A DNA stretch of 64,000 bases, taken from an uncultured virus (IMG/VR IMGVR_UViG_3300014205_009245). Its lineage: Duplodnaviria > Heunggongvirae > Uroviricota > Caudoviricetes. The DNA lies in the IMG/VR virus record IMGVR_UViG_3300014205_009245, one strand, 5' to 3'. The translations under genes were made by a program, and so were the position numbers. The notes beneath the pieces are model-generated. The model did no database searches, was not told where the DNA came from, and saw only the letters and a program-made list of their open reading frames with translations. Numbering within the stretch: the stretch's first letter is position 1; each line of letters opens with the position of its first letter. Shown here in pieces: positions 9,973-63,138 of this stretch.

Positions 9973-10019
9973 AATATTCTCCATTATGTATTATACAAGA
10001 GAATATTATGAAAATCCTT
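9966..10019 (-). promoter_or_regulatory. RBS-sequestering 16-bp hairpin with overlapping AAGGA-N18-GTATAAT promoter
   Basis: Perfect inverted repeat 9966-9981 / 9999-10014; one arm carries most of the SD and the ATG; the -10 lies in the loop. Confidence 0.8.
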
Positions 10020-11320
10020 TATTCAAATTCTAATAAATTTAGGGGTAGGATTTGGGAGGTTCTAAAAACTACCATTTCGTTATTCATCACACCAGATTGC
10101 CCTGCTTTTGCAAAATATGAATCATATCCTTTAGGCGGAGGAGAAGACCGAGAACCAGAAGGAATGAAATAATTACCCATAGCTACTAGATTATAAAACA
10201 TAAAATATCTACCCTCGTCCCTTCCGCCCCAATAATTTGTAGCATAATTCAGGGATTTTGTGCTCTCATCTGAATGATAGCACCCATTCGAATACATCCG
10301 CCCGCATACATGAGAAGCAGAAGCAGGTGGAATCACAAACCCATTTTTAAGTATTGAAAGACAATTAGATGCTTTTGTCCCGTGGAATAACTTCCACTGG
10401 TTATTTAGTTTAGAGCCATCGCGATCCCATGCGTCTTTCATTGTTGGCATATCGATTGCATATGCCTTTGTAATCTTGAGATCGTAACTTCTATGACCGT
10501 GATGCCGTCCTTTATTAAAGAATGTGCGAATTTCAGTTAAAATATCCTTATCATCTACAACTGACAATTTAACATTGAATAGCTTCGGTGTTTCCGCTTC
10601 CTCTTTCTTCTTCCCATTTTTGGGAGCTGATAAAACCGATTGAATTGATGCATCCAATCCATCAAGAATTTGGCTCTGATGTTGAATAGCATCAATGCTT
10701 CCACAAAAACCGCGGGGGTCAAATTTGCGGCCAACATCTTGAGGTATGAGCATTAAATAATCTTCAAGGGTTGTAATAAACGGCTTACCAAATGAATTCT
10801 TGGTAATAAACCCCGTAAGATCATCCAGCAGAGTCCGTGCCGCATCGACATTTGACTTTGTAACAATACCAACAGGTGTGCGGAATGTGCCAGCAGACAC
10901 ATCATAAGTAATACGCCCACCAGTAGCATGAGAAATGTTATGAGCATTAACTTCTGTGAAGAATTCAATTAGTTTTTGTGTAATAGGGCAAGTAGCAATT
11001 TGCGCCTTAGCAATTTTCTTTAATTCTGATTTTGATGATGATATACAGGCAGGAGATGATGTAGCGGCAGTATCAAGCACTTCGATTTCTCGATAACAAC
11101 CACCATCATAATGCTCAGATGGACTGGTTTTATCTCGAATCGAAGACTCCATCCTTCTACGACCAGCACCGGGATGAACCTTACTTTGTAAGGATTTTCC
11201 GATTCTGCCATATCTCACTTCTACGTCATCGTTATCGTATAAGAGCACTTCCCATCGCTTGTTGCTGTTAAGGTTGTTTGAGACAAATACAAATTTCCTG
11301 TGTTCTATCACATCTGCCAT
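10019..11320 (-). CDS. PARP-family ADP-ribosyltransferase (WGR + helical regulatory-like + catalytic domains)
   Basis: N-terminal VRYGRIG (WGR); YLMLIPQDVG (PARP_reg-like); catalytic LFHGT, MYSNGCYHSD, KSLNY, NNEMVVF (H-Y-E triad). Confidence 0.9.
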   Translation of the reverse strand: MADVIEHRKFVFVSNNLNSNKRWEVLLYDNDDVEVRYGRIGKSLQSKVHPGAGRRRMESSIRDKTSPSEHYDGGCYREIEVLDTAATSSPACISSSKSELKKIAKAQIATCPITQKLIEFFTEVNAHNISHATGGRITYDVSAGTFRTPVGIVTKSNVDAARTLLDDLTGFITKNSFGKPFITTLEDYLMLIPQDVGRKFDPRGFCGSIDAIQHQSQILDGLDASIQSVLSAPKNGKKKEEAETPKLFNVKLSVVDDKDILTEIRTFFNKGRHHGHRSYDLKITKAYAIDMPTMKDAWDRDGSKLNNQWKLFHGTKASNCLSILKNGFVIPPASASHVCGRMYSNGCYHSDESTKSLNYATNYWGGRDEGRYFMFYNLVAMGNYFIPSGSRSSPPPKGYDSYFAKAGQSGVMNNEMVVFRTSQILPLNLLEFE

Positions 11321-13016: not shown

Positions 13017-13457
13017 GTGGAACAGCATAAAATTAATTCGATCAAACTAGCACTAATATCCGCCAATTGGTGGAATCTAGTGCAACAAGAAGTTCGAGAA
13101 CAATTAGATTTCATCATAGACAATATCGATGAACTCGGATCATTATTCAAAGAATCGTTCATTGCCCTTTTTAAATATGAACATGCCAGGCGCAGAATTT
13201 TAGGAACATCTGTCTCCCTCAATCAGCCTGGTGTCTTGTTCGGTAAAAAAATGAGCGAAGAATGCTATCAGTGCTCCATCGATCCTGCTAAATCGGCGCT
13301 TCAGCTTCAGGAATGGACAGAACCCAACGAGGCAGATGTTCAGGCTTGTATATATCTATGCAATGTCGTAGACCAGCTTGGTTTGTCTCTTTCACAAGAT
13401 GGATTAAAACTAGGAGAAACAGAGAAGGATCAGCCACTTCTGCTACCGCCATCCTAG
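13017..13457 (+). CDS. Hypothetical protein
   Basis: 146-aa ORF filling the gap, preceded by GGTATAAT. Confidence 0.6.
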   Translation: MEQHKINSIKLALISANWWNLVQQEVREQLDFIIDNIDELGSLFKESFIALFKYEHARRRILGTSVSLNQPGVLFGKKMSEECYQCSIDPAKSALQLQEWTEPNEADVQACIYLCNVVDQLGLSLSQDGLKLGETEKDQPLLLPPS

Positions 13458-14156
13458 TCTAGCATTCTCACTGACAGTTGATAAAAATTCTACTATATCC
13501 ATATGACCCCTGATAGCAGCCCACTGAAAAGCCCAATCATCCACGGCGTGTATATCAGCACCCTTTTCTACGAGATATTTTACTACACTTAGATGACCAT
13601 TGCTAGCAGCATATCGCAAAGCACAATCATCCCTAGCATGTATATCAGCGCCATTTTTAATCAAGTATTTAACCACATCTAGATAATCATTGCTAACAGC
13701 CCATCCTAAAGCATAATCATCCCTAGCATGTATATCCGCACCATTTTTAATCAAATATTTAACCACATCTAGATGACCACTTTCAGCGGCCAATCTCAAA
13801 ACATAATCATCATCGATGTGTATGTCAGCACCTTCTTTGATAAGCTTTTTAATAATCTCCAGGCTACACCACTTATGACGTGGTCCTAGTTTGACTTTAT
13901 CTGCTTTCCATTTCTTAGGTAAGCCATGATTTTGATAAACTTGAGCGTCTTTGGGTAGTATAACCTCTCTGATCCAGGGACCATAGTCAAGGAAATATAG
14001 AATATTCTCGGCATCAGTGTAATAAATGCCACCTGGAGTACAATCTCCACGAGGATTGAAAGGTAGAGGGTCTACGTTTAATCCTGTCTTGTATTTAAGA
14101 CCGTGATGTGTTTCGGTTTTGTTCGTGATTTTGTAGTAAGTCATACTCATGGACAA
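13443..14156 (-). CDS. Ankyrin-repeat protein with giant-virus-type N-terminal domain
   Basis: YYKITNKTETHHGLKYKTGLN...GGIYYTD followed by four GADIHAxDDxALxxAAxxGHLDVVKYL-type repeats. Confidence 0.9.
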   Translation of the reverse strand: MSMSMTYYKITNKTETHHGLKYKTGLNVDPLPFNPRGDCTPGGIYYTDAENILYFLDYGPWIREVILPKDAQVYQNHGLPKKWKADKVKLGPRHKWCSLEIIKKLIKEGADIHIDDDYVLRLAAESGHLDVVKYLIKNGADIHARDDYALGWAVSNDYLDVVKYLIKNGADIHARDDCALRYAASNGHLSVVKYLVEKGADIHAVDDWAFQWAAIRGHMDIVEFLSTVSENARLGWR

Positions 14157-21780: not shown

Positions 21781-23409
21781 ATGAGCGCAAAAGAAATGCT
21801 TTATGATCAACAAGCCAGAGAGTCCATTCGTAATGGTGTAAAGAAACTTGCTCGGGCAGTCAAAGAAACTCTAGGGCCTCGTGGCCGCAATGTAATCATC
21901 AAGAAAGACTTCGGCACACCTGTTATCACCAAAGATGGTGTAACCGTAGCTAACGAAATTGATCTAAAAGATCCTTACGAGGATGTTGGTGCCCAAATGG
22001 TCAAAGAGGTTGCCAATAAAACTTCCAATACTGCGGGCGACGGAACAACAACTGCTACGATTTATGCAGAAGCGATATTTGAGGAAGGGCTCAAGAACGT
22101 TGTAGCTGGCGCTGATTCAATGAGCCTTAAACGAGGTATCGACAAGGCAGTCGAAGTTGTTGTCGAAGAATTTAAGAAAATGAAAATTGACGTAACCGAC
22201 ACAAAACAAATAGCGCAGGTTGGAACCAGTGCAGCCAACCAGGATGCAGCCATTGGTGAGCAAATTGCAGAAGCTATGGATAAAGTCGGGAAAGACGGTG
22301 TTATTACTATCGAAGAAGGCACAACAGTTGATACATATGTAGAGCTAGTTGAAGGAATGCAATTTGATAAAGGATATAAATCTCCGCATTTTGCTACTGA
22401 CCTTGAAACAATGGAGTGCGAACTCGAAGAACCATACATTTTTCTGTATGACAAAAAGCTAACAACCGTCAAAGATATCGTAAAAATACTCGAACAAGTA
22501 TCACAAGCAAATAAGTCAATACTGATTGTCGCCGAGGATATCGAAGGTGAAGCGTTGGCAACTCTAGTTGTCAATAAACTTCGTGGAACTCTTAAATGCT
22601 GTGCCACAAAAGCACCTAGTTTTGGCGATCGTAGAAAGGCAATGCTCGAAGATATTGCCATTCTAACTGGTGCCAGAGCCATCACTGGAGAACTTGGTGA
22701 AAAGCTCGAAAATCTAGGACTTGAAATTCTTGGAGCAGCCAAGAAAGTCAAAATCACCAAGGATGATACTACTATTGTCGATGGAGCAGGTAACCCTGAA
22801 GCAATTAAGGGGCGCATTAATCAGATTAAATCTGCTATCGAATCAAGTAATAGCGATTACGACAAAGAGAAGTTAGAAGAACGGCTAGCAAAGCTTTCAG
22901 GTGGTGTTGCCCAGATCAATGTTGGTGCTGCGACTGAAACAGAAATGAAGGAAAAGAAAGCCCGCATTGATGATGCCCTTCACGCGTGCCGAGCGGCCGT
23001 GCAGGAAGGTGTTTTGCCTGGTGGTGGAGTTGCACCAGTAAGGGCAACAAGGGCGCTGAATGATTTACTTAATGATAATTCTCTCACGCTAGACGAGAAA
23101 ACAGGCGTGGACATTGTTAAGCGAGCCCTATGTGCTCCAATACGCCAGATAACCCTTAATGCTGGCGTTGAAGGCGCAATTGTGTTGGAGAAAGTACAAA
23201 ATTCTACTGACCCTAATTTCGGGTATAATGCCCTAACCGGGCAATATGGAAATCTTGTTTCGATGGGTGTATTGGTGCCAGTTAAAGTAGAACGATGTGC
23301 CCTACAAAATGCAGCGAGTATCGGTGGCTTGCTTTTGACTACAAACGTTGTAGTCGCCGATGTGCCCAAAGAAGAGAATGACAAACATCCACAAATGGAC
23401 GGCATGTAA
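21781..23409 (+). CDS. groEL: Chaperonin GroEL
   Basis: [45 protein letters not shown]. Confidence 0.99.
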
Positions 23410-23436: not shown

Positions 23437-23880
23437 ATGAATGAGTTATCCAAAAAGCAAAGGCTTGGTATCTTTAGTTCGTATGACCCGTTCGGATTTG
23501 TTTTTGAGCGGGGTCTTGCTGATATAATGCTGGGATGGCCGGACTGGAATTGGCCAACTACTAGTATTGTTTCAGACTTTAGTGAAAGTGACCGTTCGTT
23601 CACAGTCAAAGCCGAAGTACCAGGCACAAAGGAAACAGACATAAAAGTCGAATATGGCGATAATACTTTAACTATTACATCTGAAACCAGAAAGGATAAC
23701 GAGGAAGGACAATCTCGACACAAAGAGCGATATTATGGCAAGAGCACAAGGTCTTACTACATGCCTAATGTAGACAAAGACCAGATATCTGCATCGCTCC
23801 GAGATGGAGTCCTATCGGTAACTTGCCCTAAGATTGCAAATGGTTCTGACCGGAAACAAATTCCGGTCAAGACAGACTGA
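23437..23880 (+). CDS. Hsp20/alpha-crystallin small heat-shock protein
   Basis: AEVPG...IKVEY...LTI...ERYYG...ISASLRDGVLSV..PK. Confidence 0.93.
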   Translation: MNELSKKQRLGIFSSYDPFGFVFERGLADIMLGWPDWNWPTTSIVSDFSESDRSFTVKAEVPGTKETDIKVEYGDNTLTITSETRKDNEEGQSRHKERYYGKSTRSYYMPNVDKDQISASLRDGVLSVTCPKIANGSDRKQIPVKTD

Positions 23881-24039: not shown

Positions 24040-24351
24040 TCATTCTGCGCTAAGGGCAATGTTCAGAATGTCTTTTACGGTATCTGTGCTCAGTGGGCCA
24101 AACAACATTAACTCGGGATTGTCGAATTCGCCTTTAATACGTGCCACAATTGCCCGCAGTGCATGCTTCGTGTTGCTTCCGCACAAATCCCATCCTTCAG
24201 AATGATGATCTTTATTGCAATTCTGGCACCACGATCTACAACCACAACAGCCTGGACACTCATGTAGATTCCCACCACCCGGATAGCACGAGTCGCTGGG
24301 ATTGAAATTGTCACATGGTTGCTTTCCGACTTCAAAAATTTCTCTGTTCAC
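24040..24351 (-). CDS. Cys-rich hypothetical protein
   Basis: Multiple CxxC; GTGA overlap with the ATPase gene. Confidence 0.6.
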   Translation of the reverse strand: MNREIFEVGKQPCDNFNPSDSCYPGGGNLHECPGCCGCRSWCQNCNKDHHSEGWDLCGSNTKHALRAIVARIKGEFDNPELMLFGPLSTDTVKDILNIALSAE

Positions 24352-25727
24352 GTCATCCTCCGGCGAAGAAGGTCAACAGGACTATATGGCGGCGGAAGAA
24401 CAAATTCGGACGCCCAATCTTCTCCGCAGTCTCCGTCATAATCATCTGCGCTTTCGCCCATTTTTCCAAACCCGAATTTAAGCCGATCTGCAAATTCCTG
24501 CCGATGTTTTTCAAATAATTTAAAGGTTTTTTCTACACTAACTTCTTTTCCATCCAAAAAATCAATAGTCATCAATTTACGCACTTCCTCGATTTCGGCA
24601 AATGTATAGCTTTCGGTCCTATTTATAATATCTTTAATAATTTCATCGTCTTTGTTCGCAATGTTAGCACCTAATGTTTTTAGCAAATCGGCGTGAAAAC
24701 GATTCTCAATATATACTCTTCTTAATTTTTTATTTGGTGCTTGAAAAATCATAAATACGTCAATACGACCAGGACGAACAAAAGCTGTATCGAGATCTTC
24801 TATTTGGTTAGATGTAAATATATATACTATACCCTCTGTGGGCTCGATTCCATCTAGTTCAGTTAAGAATGTGTTAACATGAGTATTTCCCGAGCTTTTA
24901 GGCTGTAAGGCCATTTCCATGTCATCAAAAAAGATAATACCCCATTCTCCTGGAGCTAACCTAAATAAGCTACTAACAGTGCCACGAGACAAAGCATTAC
25001 GGTAATCCTCGAAAGTAACAACTTTATAATCAAATCCTTTCCTAACACATAATTGTCGCAGCCACTTGCAAGTATACGTTTTTCCCCCGCCGGGACATCC
25101 GGCTAATAGCAATCCTCTCTTGCAGGGTATATTGTGCTCTTTATATGTCTTAAGCATCGACTGGCCTCGTTCAAGAAACCCGATACTATTCGCATAAATA
25201 TCTCGTAATTTTTCAGGCTCTAGAACAGGTTGAAGGGCATCTGGAATATCATTTTGGCTCTCTAAAATAAATCGATAAAACTTCTTCAAATTGCAATGCT
25301 CAACAAATTCCACGTAGCTTCCCAGAGGCGCATAATTACGGAATCCTCTCCATCTCCACATTCGAATTTTGCCCCTGTTGGCATTAATTTCATATTCGTG
25401 TATTCCGGCATCATATGGGTCATCTAATGTCGGATTTGGAGACATGGTTAAGTTTAGAACCGGAGTCTCATTTTCATCCCTGGTATTAGGTGCTAGGGAT
25501 TCTGGGATATAAATTTTGTGAGGAACCTGACGAATATGTCTTATCTTGCTCTCGCTCTTGACATCCCATGTAGTATACGTGTAGGTAATTTGTCTCAAAT
25601 CCTGCGGTTTAATCCCATATTGTTCACAAATGGCCTTGACAACCATTGCATATTCTATAGTCGTGTCTTCTTTAATTACTTCGTTAAACGAAACGGGCGG
25701 TGTTCCAAGCAAAGCTCGTTCAGACAT
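24348..25727 (-). CDS. AAA+ ATPase
   Basis: KRGLLLAGCPGGGKT, IIFFDD, TSN, LDTAFVRPGRID. Confidence 0.9.
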   Translation of the reverse strand: MSERALLGTPPVSFNEVIKEDTTIEYAMVVKAICEQYGIKPQDLRQITYTYTTWDVKSESKIRHIRQVPHKIYIPESLAPNTRDENETPVLNLTMSPNPTLDDPYDAGIHEYEINANRGKIRMWRWRGFRNYAPLGSYVEFVEHCNLKKFYRFILESQNDIPDALQPVLEPEKLRDIYANSIGFLERGQSMLKTYKEHNIPCKRGLLLAGCPGGGKTYTCKWLRQLCVRKGFDYKVVTFEDYRNALSRGTVSSLFRLAPGEWGIIFFDDMEMALQPKSSGNTHVNTFLTELDGIEPTEGIVYIFTSNQIEDLDTAFVRPGRIDVFMIFQAPNKKLRRVYIENRFHADLLKTLGANIANKDDEIIKDIINRTESYTFAEIEEVRKLMTIDFLDGKEVSVEKTFKLFEKHRQEFADRLKFGFGKMGESADDYDGDCGEDWASEFVLPPPYSPVDLLRRRMT

Positions 25728-53724: not shown

Positions 53725-55590
53725 TTAATCCTTTACTGAATACTCTGCATCTACTACATTTGTCGGCGTCTCGCCAACGGGTATATCAGGAGTCGCTGCT
53801 TTATTAGCATTATAGATATCTTCGCTGGCTTTATGCAAAGCGGTATTGAGAACATCTAAGGATTTTTTAATAGAATCCTTATCATTGGTTTTAATGGCGT
53901 CCTTGACTGCGCTGACAGCAGATTCAACATCGGACTTATTTTGTATTTTATCCCCATGCTCTTTCATCATCTTCTCGGCTTGATAGATGTGATTATCAGC
54001 CTGGTTTCTTGCATCTACCAATTCCTTTTTATTAGCATCCTCTTCCGAATATTTCTGCGCATCATCCACCATTCGTTTAACCTCATCATCGCTTAATCCA
54101 GATGACGACTTAATCTCTATGGATTGCTGTTTTCCAGTGCCAAGATCCTTAGCAGATACGTGCAAAATGCCATTAGCGTCTATATCAAAATTAACCTCAA
54201 TTTGTGGCACACCACGAGGTGCAGATGGTATATCTGCTAATTGAAATCTGCCTAAAGTTCTGTTGGAATCTGCCATCTTTCTCTCGCCCTGGAGAATATG
54301 TATATCTACTCCAGGTTGATTGTCTGCGGCAGTTGAGAATGTCTCTTTTTTAGTGGTCGGTATAGTGGTGTTTCTTGGAATTAAAACAGTCATAACGCCA
54401 CCAAGGGTTTCAACACCTAAAGAAAGCGGTGTGACATCAAGTAAAACAATATCTGAGGATTCTCCGCTTAATATTGATCCTTGTATAGCAGCACCAATGG
54501 CTACCGACTCATCGGGATTTACACTAGAATTTGGCTCTTTGCCGAACATCTCTTTTACCAAAGCACGAACTGCGGGAACGCGGGTTGAGCCACCGACCAG
54601 TATAACCTCATCTATATCCTTCGGTGTTAAATTGGCGTCTTTAAGTGCTTGCATAACTGGATTTCTACAACGCTGAATTAAACCAGAAATTATTTGCTCA
54701 AATTTAGAACGAGTTATAGTTTGATTTAGGTGCTTCGGTCCATTGGAATCTGCAGTAATGAAAGGTAGGGATATTTGAGTTTCGAGACTTGATGATAAAT
54801 CACACTTAGCCTTTTCAGCAGAATCCTTTAACCGCTGTAGAGCCATCGGATCTTTTCGAAGATCGATACCTTCCACCTTTCTGAATTCTTCTGCAATGTA
54901 GTCAACGAATGCGGCGTCAAAATCATCACCGCCTAAATGGGTGTCGCCGTTAGTGCTAAGAACCTCAAAAACATTATCTCCAATATCAAGAACTGAAATA
55001 TCAAAGGTTCCACCACCCAAATCAAAAACAGCTATTTTTTGCTGCTTCTTTTTATTCAGACCATATGATAGAGCAGCAGCAGTGGGTTCGTTGATAATTC
55101 TCTTAACATCAAACCCAGCAATCTGCCCGGCTTCTTTTGTGGCCTGTCGCTGGGCATCATTAAAATATGCGGGGACAGTGATAACCGCTTCAGTTATTTC
55201 GTGCCCAAAATATGTTTCAGCAGTCGTCTTGAGATCTTTCAATATCATTGCGGAAATCTCTGGAGGGGCGTAGTCCCTATCATCAACTTTGACCTTAACC
55301 AGTTCTTCCGGACCACCCACTATTGTATATGGAACAGTCTTTTCTTCTGCGCTAACTTCAGAATGTCGCCTTCCCATAAATCGCTTGATAGAATAAATTG
55401 TATTCTTAGGATTTAAAACCTGCTGATTCCTAGCTCGTTGACCAACAATCCTCTCGGATTTATTAAATGAAACCAGAGACGGAGTAGTGCGGCCACCGCT
55501 GCTATTAATTAATACTTTTGGCTGTCCATTTTCTACAATGGCGACAACCGAATTAGTAGTGCCAAGATCCACGCCAACAATTTTACTCAC
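53725..55590 (-). CDS. dnaK: Chaperone DnaK
   Basis: [42 protein letters not shown]. Confidence 0.99.
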
Positions 55591-58433: not shown

Positions 58434-58988
58434 CTATAAATCTTCAAAATCCATATCAAAATTTCTAGACTCGTCTACAACTTCAACAACCTTTCGTCCG
58501 ATACAAAGCTCTTCAGAAATTCTATCGAAATCTTCATCTGGTGCTACCCATCTTGCTCGTACTATATCAGGAGTATCCTTAACCCAATTATTCATTGATA
58601 GTTGTTCTATAGAGGAGACAGAAACAAATGAGTTATCGTTTTCCATATACCACAGATCAATACTGCTCTTACTAAAAAATTCAGCAGAGTGGTCGTATAT
58701 ATTTATGACCGACAAATCATATAAATACAGCTTATTTATCTGAGATATCCTTTTGTTGCCCTTAAAGGCCGTGCCAACGGCTATAGAGTCAATAGTAAGA
58801 AGCTTGTCTGCTTCATCGGCTACCCAATCAAATATGCGAAAACTTCTAACCTCTTCGAACGGTATACGAGATCCATCTGGCTTGCGCAACATTTTCCATG
58901 CAGTAACTCCACCTGATTGCGCATTAATATGTCTGTGCCGTTTGGTGGCGAATTTAATCACATCTTGTAGGGTTGGGCATATTATCAT
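58434..58988 (-). CDS. Hypothetical protein
   Basis: 184-aa ORF. Confidence 0.6.
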   Translation of the reverse strand: MIICPTLQDVIKFATKRHRHINAQSGGVTAWKMLRKPDGSRIPFEEVRSFRIFDWVADEADKLLTIDSIAVGTAFKGNKRISQINKLYLYDLSVINIYDHSAEFFSKSSIDLWYMENDNSFVSVSSIEQLSMNNWVKDTPDIVRARWVAPDEDFDRISEELCIGRKVVEVVDESRNFDMDFEDL

Positions 58989-59151
58989 GGTATATACTAT
59001 CTATCTGCTGTCTAATTATACTCGACAAGTCTTCCTCTGCTGCAAAATGTAGCGCCAATAGAACCGTTTTCCATTGTTCAGGAAGCAGCCAAATACCGCA
59101 GCATCCTTCGACTTTTTTTAAAAACTCTTTGCTTTGTTCTTTGGCTGTCAC
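58954..59151 (-). CDS. Hypothetical protein
   Basis: GTGA overlap with the topA C-terminal ORF. Confidence 0.5.
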   Translation of the reverse strand: MTAKEQSKEFLKKVEGCCGIWLLPEQWKTVLLALHFAAEEDLSSIIRQQIDSIYHDNMPNPTRCD

Positions 59152-59936
59152 TCGTCATCTGCTTTCTTTTTGTATTTCTTATACTTCTTGAATTTCTTAC
59201 CAGATGATTCCTTAAAATTACCCTCTAAATCTGCGGTAGTTTTACAGGACGGAAATTTTTCACATCCGAAAAACGACCCAAATTTCGAGTGTCTTTTAAC
59301 CATCTTTTCTCCGCATTTCTTACAGGGAAATGACGCGTACTCTTTTTCAACTTTTTGTTTAGTAAGTGGTTCTCCACTTTTCCCGACACTAGCAATGTAG
59401 TCACACGGAGATTCTTCCCCTGCATCTATCTGCTTCTGGGTCAGTTTTTTGGAGTTCTGACAAGCAAAAAATGGACCGAATTTGCTAAATTTCTTAAGCA
59501 ATGATCCTCCGCATTTAGGACACTTATATTCAGATACTTCACCTGCAGATTTAATTTGCTTACCATTGGCGATGTCTTTCTGCAACCGTTCCCAAAATTT
59601 ATCGAGGACTTCTATCTTATCTTTGGTACCACTTTGTACATCATCTAGCAGCTCTTCCATTTTAGCCGTGAACTTTATATCAATAAAACACATATCTGCT
59701 TGTCTAAGAAACTCGACAACCTTCATCCCTACCTCGGTAGGGTTGAAAGATTTTTTCTCTTGGGTTATATACTTCCTAGCTTTTAAGGTGTCAATTACAC
59801 CTTTAAAAGTCGCAGGACGAGTTATCTGCTCTTTCTCGCAAATCTTTGCCAAGCTCGCGTCTGAATATCTTGGCGGGGGCTGGGTTTCTTTTCGCTCGGC
59901 AGTTAATCCCGGATGCTTATTTATAATATCACTCAT
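59148..59936 (-). CDS. topA: DNA topoisomerase IA, C-terminal half (end of core plus Zn ribbons)
   Basis: TQPPPRYSDASL...RPATF, FTAKMEELLD, CPKCG...KFGPFFAC, CKKCG...FFGCEKFPSC. Confidence 0.9.
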   Translation of the reverse strand: MSDIINKHPGLTAERKETQPPPRYSDASLAKICEKEQITRPATFKGVIDTLKARKYITQEKKSFNPTEVGMKVVEFLRQADMCFIDIKFTAKMEELLDDVQSGTKDKIEVLDKFWERLQKDIANGKQIKSAGEVSEYKCPKCGGSLLKKFSKFGPFFACQNSKKLTQKQIDAGEESPCDYIASVGKSGEPLTKQKVEKEYASFPCKKCGEKMVKRHSKFGSFFGCEKFPSCKTTADLEGNFKESSGKKFKKYKKYKKKADDE

Positions 59937-61086
59937 GCATTCCTCTTATTGGTTTTGGTCCTGTCGGTTTTGGTATTGATTCTTCTGCAGATTTCAGATT
60001 ATCAAATCCTATACCAGTTTTTCTGTGACTTTCTACACTACATCTACTCTCGAACTCTCCGATTGCTACTGACATATCCCACTTACCGGATGAAAGAAAG
60101 TTAGAAACTAAAACCTGCTTAACAAGATCCATGTCTGCAAAGCTAAATCCCTCAGAACGATTAATAAATTCGGGCACATCAATACCATCCAAAATATTCT
60201 GATTCCAAGTATTGATAAATTTCTTCCTTAATTCAGTGTTAGGATTGTCAAAAGAAAAACACTTATCGACTCGCCCTGGTCTGAGAAAAGCCGGATCTAT
60301 ATTTTTGATAGATTCATTAGTAGAAAATATTCTCAGTGCAACAGAAGATGTTTTTTTGCACCCATCTAGACAAGAAAGCAGGCTGCATGCCATCTCGGAA
60401 TTAGATTTCCTAGAAAAGAAGTCTATATCAACGTCATCTACAAAAATCACCCTGAAATCGAACGGATTTCTATTATCTATTATTGTTTTAATGAGATCTC
60501 TCGATGTATACACCATAACATCAATTCCGCGATTATTAAAGCATCGTATAAGATAATCACAAAACATTGATTTCCCATTCCCGGGTGGACCAGAAAGTAT
60601 TATTCCCCGAGTCGTCTTGACGCCGTATGCCTTATAATCCCGAGCCTTTTTAAAAAATCCAACAGTATTATCGATTAAATCACCCCACAGTGCGTCATTC
60701 AATACAGGCGCAATGGGAGGATTAAGCCGAGCCGAAAGTCTTATTAAAGATCTTTTAGCTTTAAACGCCTTACCCTTTTCTATGAAAATATAATAGATCG
60801 AAACCCCATATGGCCCAAATGATACACATGCCCGAACAAATTTTATGTCAGAGTTATCACGCATTTCACATAATTGCAAAAAGTTATGAAGTTTATTAGG
60901 CATCGATCCATCGGTGCCAATGGTTGTTGTTTTACAATAAGATAGGCCAGAAAAAACACCTTTAAGAAATTGTCCCTCTGAATACATGATTAAATTTGCG
61001 GGATTTGTTCCCAAAATATGAGCAGCCTGACTGGCTACTATCGTAGTTAAATATTCGTCGCCATAAGTGGCAGATTGGGTTATCAT
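59929..61086 (-). CDS. AAA+ ATPase inserted between the topA halves
   Basis: TRGIILSGPPGNGKS, IFVDD, STN, IDPAFLRPGRVD. Confidence 0.9.
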   Translation of the reverse strand: MITQSATYGDEYLTTIVASQAAHILGTNPANLIMYSEGQFLKGVFSGLSYCKTTTIGTDGSMPNKLHNFLQLCEMRDNSDIKFVRACVSFGPYGVSIYYIFIEKGKAFKAKRSLIRLSARLNPPIAPVLNDALWGDLIDNTVGFFKKARDYKAYGVKTTRGIILSGPPGNGKSMFCDYLIRCFNNRGIDVMVYTSRDLIKTIIDNRNPFDFRVIFVDDVDIDFFSRKSNSEMACSLLSCLDGCKKTSSVALRIFSTNESIKNIDPAFLRPGRVDKCFSFDNPNTELRKKFINTWNQNILDGIDVPEFINRSEGFSFADMDLVKQVLVSNFLSSGKWDMSVAIGEFESRCSVESHRKTGIGFDNLKSAEESIPKPTGPKPIRGMHE

Positions 61087-61096
61087 TCGAACTCCT

Positions 61097-62371
61097 TCAG
61101 GTTAACAATTTACACTTTTCGCCTCCGAACAAATTTGGCAAAATAACATCATCTGATTTCCCATAATGCCAAACCTGCCGATGCCCGTCGAATAACATTT
61201 GATTGCCATTTGACACAAATTCATATTCAGAAATATCAGTAATCACTTTCGATTTTTTATCTAGCCCAGGAGTCATTTGGCTAGCTACTGTTCTGCGCCA
61301 AATTATTTCGTATAGTTTCCCGTTATCCTCAGGTGCTGACGGATGAACGTTAGAAATATCCGTTGGTCTACACGCTTCGTGGGCTTCCTGTGCTCCTTTT
61401 TTTGCACTGTAATAGTTGGGTTTATCCGGAATATAATCTGACCCATAGGTGTGAGAAATATAATTTCGTATTGCCTGCATTGGTTCTTCTGCTATTGTGA
61501 CCGAATCGGTACGATGATAGCTGATTAATCCGTTACTATACAGGTTCTGAGCCACATCCATTGTCTTTTTAGTTTGCCATCCCAAAATCGAGGACGCAGC
61601 AGCAATAAGAGGCATGGTGGCGAACGGAGCGTAAGGATTAGATTTCACATCTTTTGATTCAACACTGGCAACAACTGGATTCCCCCCAATAACGGCATCG
61701 TATATTTTTGTAGCCTCTGCTTCATTTGGGACTTTGAATTTATCTGATAGTGAAGCAGTATATTGCTCATTTTTACTCGACAAGAGCCGAGCCGTAAAAA
61801 TCCAGTATTCTTCAGGAATAAAGTGAAGTATTTCATTTTCGCGGTCAACCAAAATCCGTAATACAGCACTTTGCACCCTGCCCGCCGATTTACCGCCCGT
61901 GGCCTGCTGAGTTAAAAAACTAGTTCGATAACCCACTAATCTATCTAGTAATCGGCGAGCCAGATAAGCATTAATTTTACCTTGATCTAGTTCTCCGGCA
62001 TTTTCTATAGCCTTCTTAATACCCGATGCTGTAATTTCGCTAGTTGAAGCTCGTAATACTTTCTTGGCAATATCTTTAATTTGCTCATAAATGTGGAATG
62101 ATATTGCTTCACCTTCACGATCTGGGTCTGTCATTAATAATACTAAATCAGATTTAGCACATTTAGATTTAATAGCATTAATTGTATCCTGATGATCATC
62201 CTTAACTTCAAAAGTGGGTTCAAAGGATTTTTTAATATTTATACCCAAACCCTTTTCGGGAAGGTCCACACAGTGCCCATATGAAGCCAGGACATCATAC
62301 TCTTTACCCGCGTATTTCTTATACCCATTAACCTTATTTGGTGCTTCAATGATAATTACTTTTTTGGACAT
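61097..62371 (-). CDS. topA: DNA topoisomerase IA, N-terminal half (TOPRIM + catalytic Tyr)
   Basis: IIEAP.K, TDPDREGEAI, RRLLDRLVG, SAGRVQS, AQNLY..GLISYHRTDS, AQEAHEACRPT. Confidence 0.93.
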   Translation of the reverse strand: MSKKVIIIEAPNKVNGYKKYAGKEYDVLASYGHCVDLPEKGLGINIKKSFEPTFEVKDDHQDTINAIKSKCAKSDLVLLMTDPDREGEAISFHIYEQIKDIAKKVLRASTSEITASGIKKAIENAGELDQGKINAYLARRLLDRLVGYRTSFLTQQATGGKSAGRVQSAVLRILVDRENEILHFIPEEYWIFTARLLSSKNEQYTASLSDKFKVPNEAEATKIYDAVIGGNPVVASVESKDVKSNPYAPFATMPLIAAASSILGWQTKKTMDVAQNLYSNGLISYHRTDSVTIAEEPMQAIRNYISHTYGSDYIPDKPNYYSAKKGAQEAHEACRPTDISNVHPSAPEDNGKLYEIIWRRTVASQMTPGLDKKSKVITDISEYEFVSNGNQMLFDGHRQVWHYGKSDDVILPNLFGGEKCKLLT

Positions 62372-62423
62372 TGAATCTCCATAAAATTAAGCGTCAAGGG
62401 AACCGTGAGTATTATATAAAGGG

Positions 62424-62455
62424 TTGAGCCTGGCTTTCAAGGCAACCAGGCTCAA
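62424..62455. promoter_or_regulatory. Inverted repeat upstream of topA (terminator/operator candidate)
   Basis: TTGAGCCTGG...CCAGGCTCAA next to a minus-strand TATAAT. Confidence 0.45.
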
Positions 62456-62562
62456 TTTTCTAATAAACCAATAATTTAATAATTTAACTAATTTGACTTT
62501 TAGCCACGCAATAAACAGCGTCCCGTCGTTTAAAATAATATAATATTTCTAAAATTTAAACT

Positions 62563-62769
62563 TTACTTAACTACAACAGGAAGGTCCAAAAGCTTGCGTC
62601 GTCCACCTGGCGGAGTCTGTAGGTGATTTGCGACTACCCGAACTCCATAGAGCCGATTCTGTCTTGCCATCTGGACTGCCTGTGAAACACTCCGTTCCTT
62701 GCCGTCGATCTTATACCCGATCGTGTGTCTCTTGCTGTTTGTGATCCTCTTGGTAATTCTACTCTTCAT
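62563..62769 (-). CDS. Small basic protein (DUF3892-like)
   Basis: Start MKSRIT after AAGGAG; GYKIDG...QAVQMA....GV.VV...L...L.DLP. Confidence 0.5.
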   Translation of the reverse strand: MKSRITKRITNSKRHTIGYKIDGKERSVSQAVQMARQNRLYGVRVVANHLQTPPGGRRKLLDLPVVVK

Positions 62770-62838
62770 TTTTGTTCTCCTTTTCAAAAGCAACCTTCCA
62801 TTATACAACATTTTCCCCGACCTGATGAGGAAAAATTT

Positions 62839-63138
62839 TTAATCTATCAGCCCGGGTGGAATATCAGTGTCATCCTTTAATATCCCGGCTTCATAAGCAG
62901 TTTTTACTGCACAATAAAAATGTATCCACGTCACTGCAAAATCAAATTCTTCGGAAGTAAATTCGTTTAGATCGAAATGCTCCAGCATAACATCAGCAAC
63001 ATCTTCGGCTGATTTTTCATCAGCACCATACCACCTAATATTCTTATCGACTATTTCCTTAGCAACTTCCAGGACTTTCTTGTTAATTTCCTCGACTACC
63101 TTGATCCTAACAAAAATATCATCGCCTACAAGTTTCAC
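62839..63138 (-). CDS. Hypothetical acidic protein
   Basis: GTG start in frame with thyX, two codons after its TAG. Confidence 0.6.
   Translation of the reverse strand: MKLVGDDIFVRIKVVEEINKKVLEVAKEIVDKNIRWYGADEKSAEDVADVMLEHFDLNEFTSEEFDFAVTWIHFYCAVKTAYEAGILKDDTDIPPGLID

Follow-up and report, generated by a model that had tools for sequence, protein, structure and literature searches.

A type IA topoisomerase encoded in two genes around an AAA+ ATPase gene in an uncultured phage: a probable homing-endonuclease split with a likely passenger in the gap

Why would a phage encode its type IA topoisomerase in two genes and keep an AAA+ ATPase gene between them? The question is raised by a 64,000-nucleotide stretch of an uncultured virus of the Caudoviricetes (IMG/VR record IMGVR_UViG_3300014205_009245; hereafter the window), which belongs to a phage of roughly 270 kb. 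On the minus strand of the window, the gene for the N-terminal half of the topoisomerase (N-half; 61097..62371) is followed by the ATPase gene (59929..61086) and by the gene for the C-terminal half (C-half; 59148..59936). With a probability of about 0.7, a homing-endonuclease cassette split the topoisomerase gene at the hinge between domains II and IV (the D2/D4 hinge), and the slot is now held by a passenger ATPase gene.

The N-half has 424 residues, ends with ...LPNLFGGEKCKLLT directly before its stop codon, and contains the Toprim domain, the region of the active-site Tyr285 (SYHRTDS) and the domains up to the D2/D4 border. The C-half has 262 residues, starts with MSDIINKHPGLTAERKETQPPPRY, and contains the D2/D4 hinge segment with a conserved Arg23 (QPPPRY), the remainder of domain IV and two Zn ribbons. 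In Pfam, the N-half matches Toprim (E 2e-16) and positions 2-307 of the 411 positions of Topoisom_bac (E 8e-71), and the C-half matches positions 311-410 of the same profile (E 7e-27) and, in two stretches, Zn_ribbon_Top1; in PHROG 13226 (profile length 726), the N-half covers positions 3-471 and the C-half 478-713. The gap between the halves is 1160 nucleotides, of which the gene for the 385-residue ATPase (PF00004, AAA; E 5e-10) occupies 1158, with 10 nucleotides outside its reading frame. These 10 nucleotides (61087..61096) separate the N-half stop codon from the ATPase start codon and include an AGGAG (61092-61096) immediately 3' of the stop codon and 5 nucleotides ahead of the ATPase ATG. 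At the other junction (59929..59946), an AGAGG (59942-59946) stands 5 nucleotides ahead of the C-half ATG (59934-59936), and the overlap with the end of the ATPase gene is 8 nucleotides (59929-59936). All three genes have the same orientation and are tightly packed, and the ATPase is apparently translationally coupled with both topoisomerase halves, as suggested by these spacings. The first-pass annotation of this DNA had described the three genes, their limits and end sequences, both Shine-Dalgarno sites and the start-stop overlap in exactly this way. It had also pointed to a TTAAC at both borders, which is indeed present; its significance does not hold up, as TTAAC occurs at chance level (161 copies on both strands of the window, 2.5 per kb), and the border repeat was discounted.

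The break itself is lossless. The segment from the FDG motif to the P-x-R-[YF] motif is 45 residues long in 94 of 98 measured proteins (a 99th row was left out as a mis-anchored match), 46 residues in two, and 62 and 66 residues in two forms with scar-like insertions described below. In the window, the first 31 of the 45 residues are in the N-half and the last 14 are in the C-half, behind a 10-residue leader. Alignment with the Escherichia coli TopA chain 1cy0 (E 6e-76 for the N-half) places N-half residue 419 at position 460 and C-half residue 11 at position 466; N-half residues 420-424 fill positions 461-465 exactly, so that the two alignments abut at 465/466. Both the segment count and this alignment agree with the earlier claim that no residues were lost: the two halves together retain all topoisomerase residues, and the C-half has the 10 leader residues in addition. 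In a 16-sequence alignment that includes the window, the N-half retains every invariant column; Glu9, Asp82, Asp84 and Arg85 of Toprim are invariant and Glu86 is nearly so, and Tyr285, Arg287 and Asp289 are invariant as well. No invariant residue is missing from either half, and each has its start codon and ribosome-binding site. The Toprim domain and the catalytic core of a type IA topoisomerase are covered end to end, and only the single chain is replaced by two open reading frames (ORFs). As judged from these alignments, the halves are one two-piece type IA topoisomerase of the bacterial Topo I type.

C-half residues 11-115 align to residues 506-610 of the Mycobacterium tuberculosis Topo I chain 5d5h. 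A preprint describes a predicted Topo I hinge, Pro506-Leu526, on the D2/D4 border, and reports that the conserved hinge residue Arg516 is required for relaxation (PMC12889582); control over the opening of the toroid, or gate, has been ascribed to the D2/D4 hinge (PMC4678816). With a tolerance of a few residues, because chain and protein may be numbered differently, the break would sit at the N-terminal edge of this hinge, and the conserved hinge arginine would correspond to Arg23 of the C-half.

An interrupted gene in metagenomic data might be broken and decaying, or might result from misassembly. The region 58900-62600 is spanned with 0 differences by one contig of 51.8 kb and by one of 46.2 kb, which come from two runs in two studies; the runs are labelled landfill and groundwater metagenomes, and either may be the source of the window, so that they provide at most one independent confirmation. 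In a third study (run X3), a contig of 1969 bp aligns to 59668-61507 with 264 differences and 19 gaps (about 85% DNA identity) and keeps the same order, from part of the C-half through the whole ATPase gene and into the N-half; P0122, which appears to be the ATPase of this lineage, is 81% identical in protein to that of the window. Against this relative, 21 of the 24 listed differences at 59703-59916, within the C-half only, fall at third codon positions, the differences listed being a subset (40 of 411). The topoisomerase halves are maintained by purifying selection. The first-pass annotation had raised both a unique arrangement with decaying halves and misassembly; what is found is a break that recurs in relatives, invariant columns that are kept, differences concentrated at third positions, identical contigs from two runs and a diverged copy in the same order, which makes decay or artefact a very improbable account of the locus. 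In run X2, one joint links 59681 to 61374 across 505 other letters, the matching sides being 26-29 letters long; it fits a one-piece topoisomerase from another organism and is not an excised form of this locus. No RNA run was among the sequencing runs listed for the region.

The origin of the split is illuminated by relatives, taken as the best 120 matches of the N-half. About 100 of these are one-piece proteins of 654-712 residues, and 10, including the window's own, are N-half-only proteins, eight of which end 31-33 residues past FDG and two of which bear longer, unrelated tails; four further proteins break off at other points, probably where their contigs end, and do not enter later counts. 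When the C-half was used as the query, four more stand-alone C-halves with the same start point were found. Split loci with readable DNA number three (L167; L168, which holds P0010; L178, which holds P0046), and in all three the gap contains a LAGLIDADG_2 endonuclease gene (E 1.7e-17, 1.7e-13 and 1.5e-12) and in none an ATPase gene. The three endonucleases are mutually homologous (44% and 27% identity). The gaps are 678, 947 and 1585 nucleotides long and are essentially filled with ORFs. In the longest, that of L178 (L178:2030-3643), four ORFs are present, encoding an HTH_17 protein, the LAGLIDADG endonuclease and two proteins without a family match; the gap is able to hold more than the endonuclease gene. 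The synteny of N-half, ATPase and C-half, a point that the first-pass annotation left to be looked for, is kept in the one relative of about 85% DNA identity, and does not extend to the three readable split loci with their endonuclease genes. The analogy which that annotation drew with the split nrdA gene and mobE of phage Aeh1 proves to be the right frame. Two further stand-alone C-terminal topoisomerase fragments, P0163 and P0164, start further downstream, at a GIGRPATYA motif, and may represent a second split site or partial gene calls.

The split alleles are also linked by what was added at the break. Every split C-half opens with a leader of the form M..IN-x-HPGL, after which comes (V/T)AE(Q/R)K, and IN-x-HPGL is common to the six that were aligned; at the place of the leader, one-piece forms have L-x-KEQK. 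In the window the leader is MSDIINKHPG (59907..59936, minus strand, 10 codons), which is not in one-piece topoisomerases. Compared with L178, three of its 10 codons are identical, five differ synonymously and two nonsynonymously; the corresponding figures for C-half codons 11-93 are 22, 30 and 31. Because five of the seven differing leader codons are synonymous, the leader is conserved as a peptide, a new terminal tail under selection of the kind known from genes in pieces. A degenerate DNA pattern for the leader motif had 0 matches in viral contigs; two matches in genome contigs are due to chance and are not topoisomerases. In two one-piece proteins, P0054 (the same as L191/L192) and P0062, the chain is longer by 17 and 21 residues precisely where the others are split, and the P0054 insert (L191:4490-4600) includes the leader motif HPGLVAEQK. 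These residues look like scars of re-fusion after loss of the insert; alternatively, they may be an ancestral loop.

Split and intact forms are intermingled in the phylogeny. A tree was built from 78 N-half rows, with L167 and L191 added and with the four truncated proteins and the junction columns omitted; on it, the 11 split rows need 11 changes, of which at least nine are forced by well-supported branches, and this number is no smaller than that obtained with shuffled labels (mean 10.6). A single split clade is rejected by the approximately unbiased test (delta lnL 988.9, p-AU 9e-81). The closest pairs of split and intact proteins are 92%, 89% and 85% identical, and the nearest tree row to the window is a one-piece protein, P0002 (64% identity). 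Such a patchy distribution is typical of genes in pieces and is as expected of a mobile cassette; the pattern fits a homing cassette carrying its own stop codon, endonuclease gene, start codon and leader.

A mobile homing-endonuclease cassette would thus have landed at the domain II/IV border of the topoisomerase, ended the upstream reading frame and equipped what lies downstream with a ribosome-binding site, a start codon and a short leader of its own, with the two polypeptides being made separately from one transcript. The halves would most likely reassemble into an active enzyme without covalent joining, possibly aided by the leader. In the window phage and its close relative, the ATPase gene would have replaced the endonuclease gene that normally lies in the gap or, alternatively, would have come in beside the endonuclease as cargo. 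Because the topoisomerase gene is already in two pieces, insertions in the gap would cost nothing, and the ATPase gene, in this insertion-tolerant site, most likely encodes a passenger that is expressed along with the halves and is not a subunit of the enzyme. Of the heterodimeric type IA topoisomerase proposed by the first-pass annotation, a split gene of the endonuclease type can be retained, whose halves would act as a heterodimer once reassembled.

Several observations weigh against this reconstruction. Uninterrupted homologues and a lossless break, as in genes in pieces, are found; an endonuclease in the gap is not, and neither a LAGLIDADG nor an HNH endonuclease gene or remnant was found anywhere in the window (best tblastn E 0.88). 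Because there is no such trace, the endonuclease origin of the window's split depends on its relatives and on the shared leader, and gap content is known for only three of the other split forms. That the halves come together and are active is an inference, as is the course by which the ATPase gene entered the gap. The codon-position count draws on a part of the differences only. The tight packing, the apparent coupling and the order kept in the diverged relative also fit a functional link between the ATPase and the topoisomerase, and in L169 an intact topoisomerase is followed, two genes further downstream and at the contig end, by a member of the ATPase family, so that the linkage is not purely random.

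The missing remnant, together with an ATPase gene that takes up nearly the whole gap, would also suit a split made by the ATPase gene itself, either as an unusual mobile element, as the first-pass annotation had suggested, or by illegitimate recombination, with no endonuclease cassette involved. This course of events is improbable. The endonuclease-bearing alleles share both the break point and the type of leader with the window, and since these would not be expected to recur, an independent event is unlikely. In addition, no nuclease, integrase, transposase or other recombinase domain was found in the ATPase (Pfam and PHROG), there are no flanking repeats above chance, and the ATPase gene has a base composition like that of its surroundings (GC content 0.373 versus 0.397). 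The idea of the ATPase as an insertion element is therefore not supported, the slot being a known landing site of another element.

LAGLIDADG genes usually reside in introns or inteins, which raises the possibility that splicing restores a mature enzyme of one chain, either at the RNA level (group I or group II intron) or at the protein level (split intein). In the same direction, relatives carry an intein at another site in the same gene, and the genes of huge phages are described as riddled with introns and endonucleases and as often interrupted by small group I introns (PMC12880540). However, no Rfam match at E <= 1 was obtained at 58500-63000 of the window or in L167, L168 or L178, although small divergent ribozymes could escape Rfam, and the Rfam matches in L191 are tRNAs and weak, below-threshold ones overlapping two of them. 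Only the 10 nucleotides between N-half and ATPase lie outside the ATPase frame, and the leader evolves as protein. At the break the N side has gained 0-2 residues and the C side 10, far fewer than intein halves would need. Because intein halves are lacking and neither half contains a Pfam intein domain, no protein splicing is expected. The first-pass annotation had likewise seen no room for intron RNA and no intein motif, and splicing of either kind has very little probability.

What kind of protein, then, occupies the gap? The ATPase comprises a Bcs1/YjoB-like N-domain (approximately residues 1-125), Walker A (GPPGNGKS, 166-173), Walker B (DD, 217-218), a sensor motif (TNE, 256-258), the arginines R269 and R272, and an invariant G360-F361 within a disordered tail (352-385). 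In an alignment of 15 family members, Walker A and B, sensor 1 and the arginines are intact (invariant residues G166, P168-K172, D217, D218, T256-E258, R269 and R272), as is a G-F near the C-terminus; Walker A, Walker B, sensor 1 and the arginines of the second region of homology are the hallmarks of classical AAA proteins. The best PDB matches of the family profile are Cdc48/p97, AFG2, NSF and the proteasomal Rpt subunits (E ~1e-46), and a monomer model (predicted local distance difference test, pLDDT, 80) finds its best whole-length fold matches in Bacillus subtilis YjoB (7w42) and Bcs1. The AAA core motifs and the whole-length YjoB/Bcs1 fold are shared with the Bcs1/YjoB/Cdc48 type, although identity to Bcs1 and YjoB over the fold match is only 14-18%, and the G-F near the C-terminus is particular to the family of the gap ATPase. 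No helicase family matched the ATPase. Bcs1, YjoB and Cdc48-type families remodel proteins and are not DNA motors. By its profile and its modelled fold, the gap ATPase is accordingly a classical AAA ATPase of the Bcs1/YjoB/Cdc48 type and a putative protein remodeller. The end of the gene (59929-60010, residues 360-385) encodes the invariant Gly-Phe and then a disordered, indel-rich tail; in the relative of about 85% DNA identity, this tail is rich in small insertions and deletions.

A remodeller encoded between the two halves might be a dedicated partner of the two-piece topoisomerase, that is, an assembly or disassembly factor or an ATP-dependent regulator. Bcs1/YjoB-type AAA proteins handle folded proteins, and the packing of the three genes (a ribosome-binding site right after the N-half stop codon, an 8-nucleotide stop/start overlap), the order conserved with the 81% identical ATPase of the diverged relative, and the family member near the intact topoisomerase of L169 could all be understood in this way. 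It is nonetheless unlikely. The same split occurs with an endonuclease and without the ATPase in all three loci read. In viral contigs, none of the 12 loci of the ATPase family (L001-L012, 28-39% identity) lies within 5 kb of a topoisomerase; in two of these contigs (L005, L006) an intact topoisomerase lies approximately 92 kb from the family member. Among 159 topoisomerase loci (L081-L239), L169 is the only one with a family member nearby, and one-piece topoisomerases manage without a neighbouring ATPase in the other 158. Reverse gyrase couples its topoisomerase to a helicase-type module of superfamily 2 (SF2), whereas the gap ATPase is classical AAA; the phage has, moreover, its own chaperone set and a second ATPase paralogue elsewhere. 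The three-part ATP-linked topoisomerase envisaged by the first-pass annotation is for these reasons not supported. Equally doubtful is a Bcs1/YjoB-like ATPase that would act at the severed D2/D4 hinge to assemble, load or reset the heterodimer; if it existed, the three genes would form an ATP-dependent topoisomerase module of an undescribed kind. In a milder version, the ATPase gene may be one example of cargo that homing cassettes at this site take along and spread. The passenger ATPase in a slot opened by a homing cassette remains the preferred explanation.

The ATPase family itself offers few further clues. Its neighbours vary among loci without a consistent functional hint; in L012, a ClpP protease gene (L012:5984-6610) lies two genes downstream of the family member. 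The second paralogue in the window (24348-25727, minus strand; 27% identity, hhalign probability 99.9%) adjoins genes for a GroEL-type chaperonin (21781-23409, plus strand) and an Hsp20 protein (23437-23880, plus strand), and a DnaK/Hsp70 gene lies further on (53725-55590, minus strand); the phage carries a sizeable protein-folding toolkit. The cultured-phage collection contains no DNA relative of the window and distant AAA matches only. In viral contigs, single-protein scans turned up no close relative of either the N-half or the ATPase, and a scan of genome contigs gave none of the ATPase; the genome-contig relatives of the N-half are cellular topoisomerases (34-39% identity).

In Aeromonas phage Aeh1, the genes-in-pieces organization nrdA-a/mobE/nrdA-b was reportedly described by Friedrich and colleagues in 2007. 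The endonuclease encoded by mobE belongs to another class than the LAGLIDADG endonuclease of the window's relatives. In Aeh1, and probably here as well, a free-standing homing endonuclease has split the gene of an essential phage enzyme at a conserved site, the pieces are translated separately, or would be in the window phage, and short new tails are found at the break; those of Aeh1 NrdA, created by the mobE insertion, are reported to be essential (Crona et al., 2010; PMC3045599). The enzyme of the window differs in being a type IA topoisomerase with an AAA+ ATPase in the slot, and both its activity and a role of its leader are putative. A phage topoisomerase has been split before: the large subunit of the T4 topoisomerase II is divided into genes 39 and 60 by a mobA insertion, and the enzyme is reported to be functional (PMC2988022). 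As proposed here, separately translated polypeptides result in T4 from the insertion of a homing endonuclease; the T4 enzyme is, however, of type II, ATP-dependent, of another fold and broken at another site, and its gap holds no foreign gene of cellular type.

The two-subunit reverse gyrase of Methanopyrus kandleri, reportedly described by Krah and colleagues in 1996, is said to be broken elsewhere in its topoisomerase domain, and we know of no mobile element reported in its gap. Its type IA domain is described as divided between two subunits (PMC4117796). As would be the case for the window enzyme, two polypeptides associate there into an active enzyme; the M. kandleri enzyme is archaeal, however, and a fused SF2 helicase module supplies its ATP coupling. 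'Fractured genes', in which a free-standing LAGLIDADG gene lies between split-intein halves, were reportedly described by Dassa and colleagues in 2009. A lone LAGLIDADG gene between two halves of a host gene is shared with the window's relatives, whereas the window halves carry tails of 0-2 and 10 residues and no Pfam intein domain. No report of a split phage type IA topoisomerase was found in the literature searched, subscription journals and closed supplements being outside its scope.

The locus would extend 'genes in pieces' to the type IA topoisomerases of huge phages. Split, intact and apparently re-fused variants occur in nature, and they offer a test of how much covalent continuity the D2/D4 hinge needs. 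The gap of a split gene appears to be reusable as a slot for ordinary genes (four ORFs in one relative, the ATPase here), and selfish elements would in this way have a modest but concrete means of altering the gene order of phages. Both halves are best annotated under the name of a single enzyme, rather than as fragments or pseudogenes.

The topoisomerase gene is, by its domain matches, a hot spot for other selfish elements as well. An intein (Intein_splicing with LAGLIDADG_3) is present in all four relatives with an in-frame insertion of 1.2-1.5 kb (L098:6850-8376, L157/L158:6874-8055, L229:2115-3635, L236:6097-7572); its site corresponds approximately to residue 281 of the window N-half, adjoining the active-site tyrosine, and it is a different selfish element in the same gene family. 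In many relatives, the topoisomerase gene is directly adjoined by a gene from one family of free-standing HNH_3 endonucleases (L168:7209-8108, L167:2416-3261, L178:2-814, with matches also in L160, L081, L090, L172, L185, L183, L162, L170, L098, L186 and L088); no copy was found in the window (best E 9). The ThyX protein of the window matches in two separated pieces at L177:2969-4336 and L236:2652-4016, suggesting that the ThyX gene is also interrupted in these two contigs.

The genes around the split topoisomerase are arranged in the order ThyX, a 99-residue ORF, an 82-residue ORF, topoisomerase, a 184-residue ORF, a 79-residue ORF and a metallopeptidase; this backbone is collinear with that of many relatives, and the ATPase gene is the sole extra gene. 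Upstream of the N-half, a sigma-70-like promoter match (62411..62440, minus strand; TTGAAA-18-TATAAT, 11 of 12 positions) is the best of the region and overlaps a terminator-like 12-bp hairpin (62424-62455) that closes the gene upstream of the N-half; both are consensus matches only, and promoter-like sites are not enriched in the region (12, against a mean of 13.9 in shuffled sequences). Six tRNA genes surround the one-piece topoisomerase gene of L191 (L191:613-6160). Elsewhere in the window, a protein with a PARP catalytic domain (10019-11320) and two ankyrin-repeat proteins (1-585 and 13443-14156), all encoded on the minus strand, are unusual in a phage.

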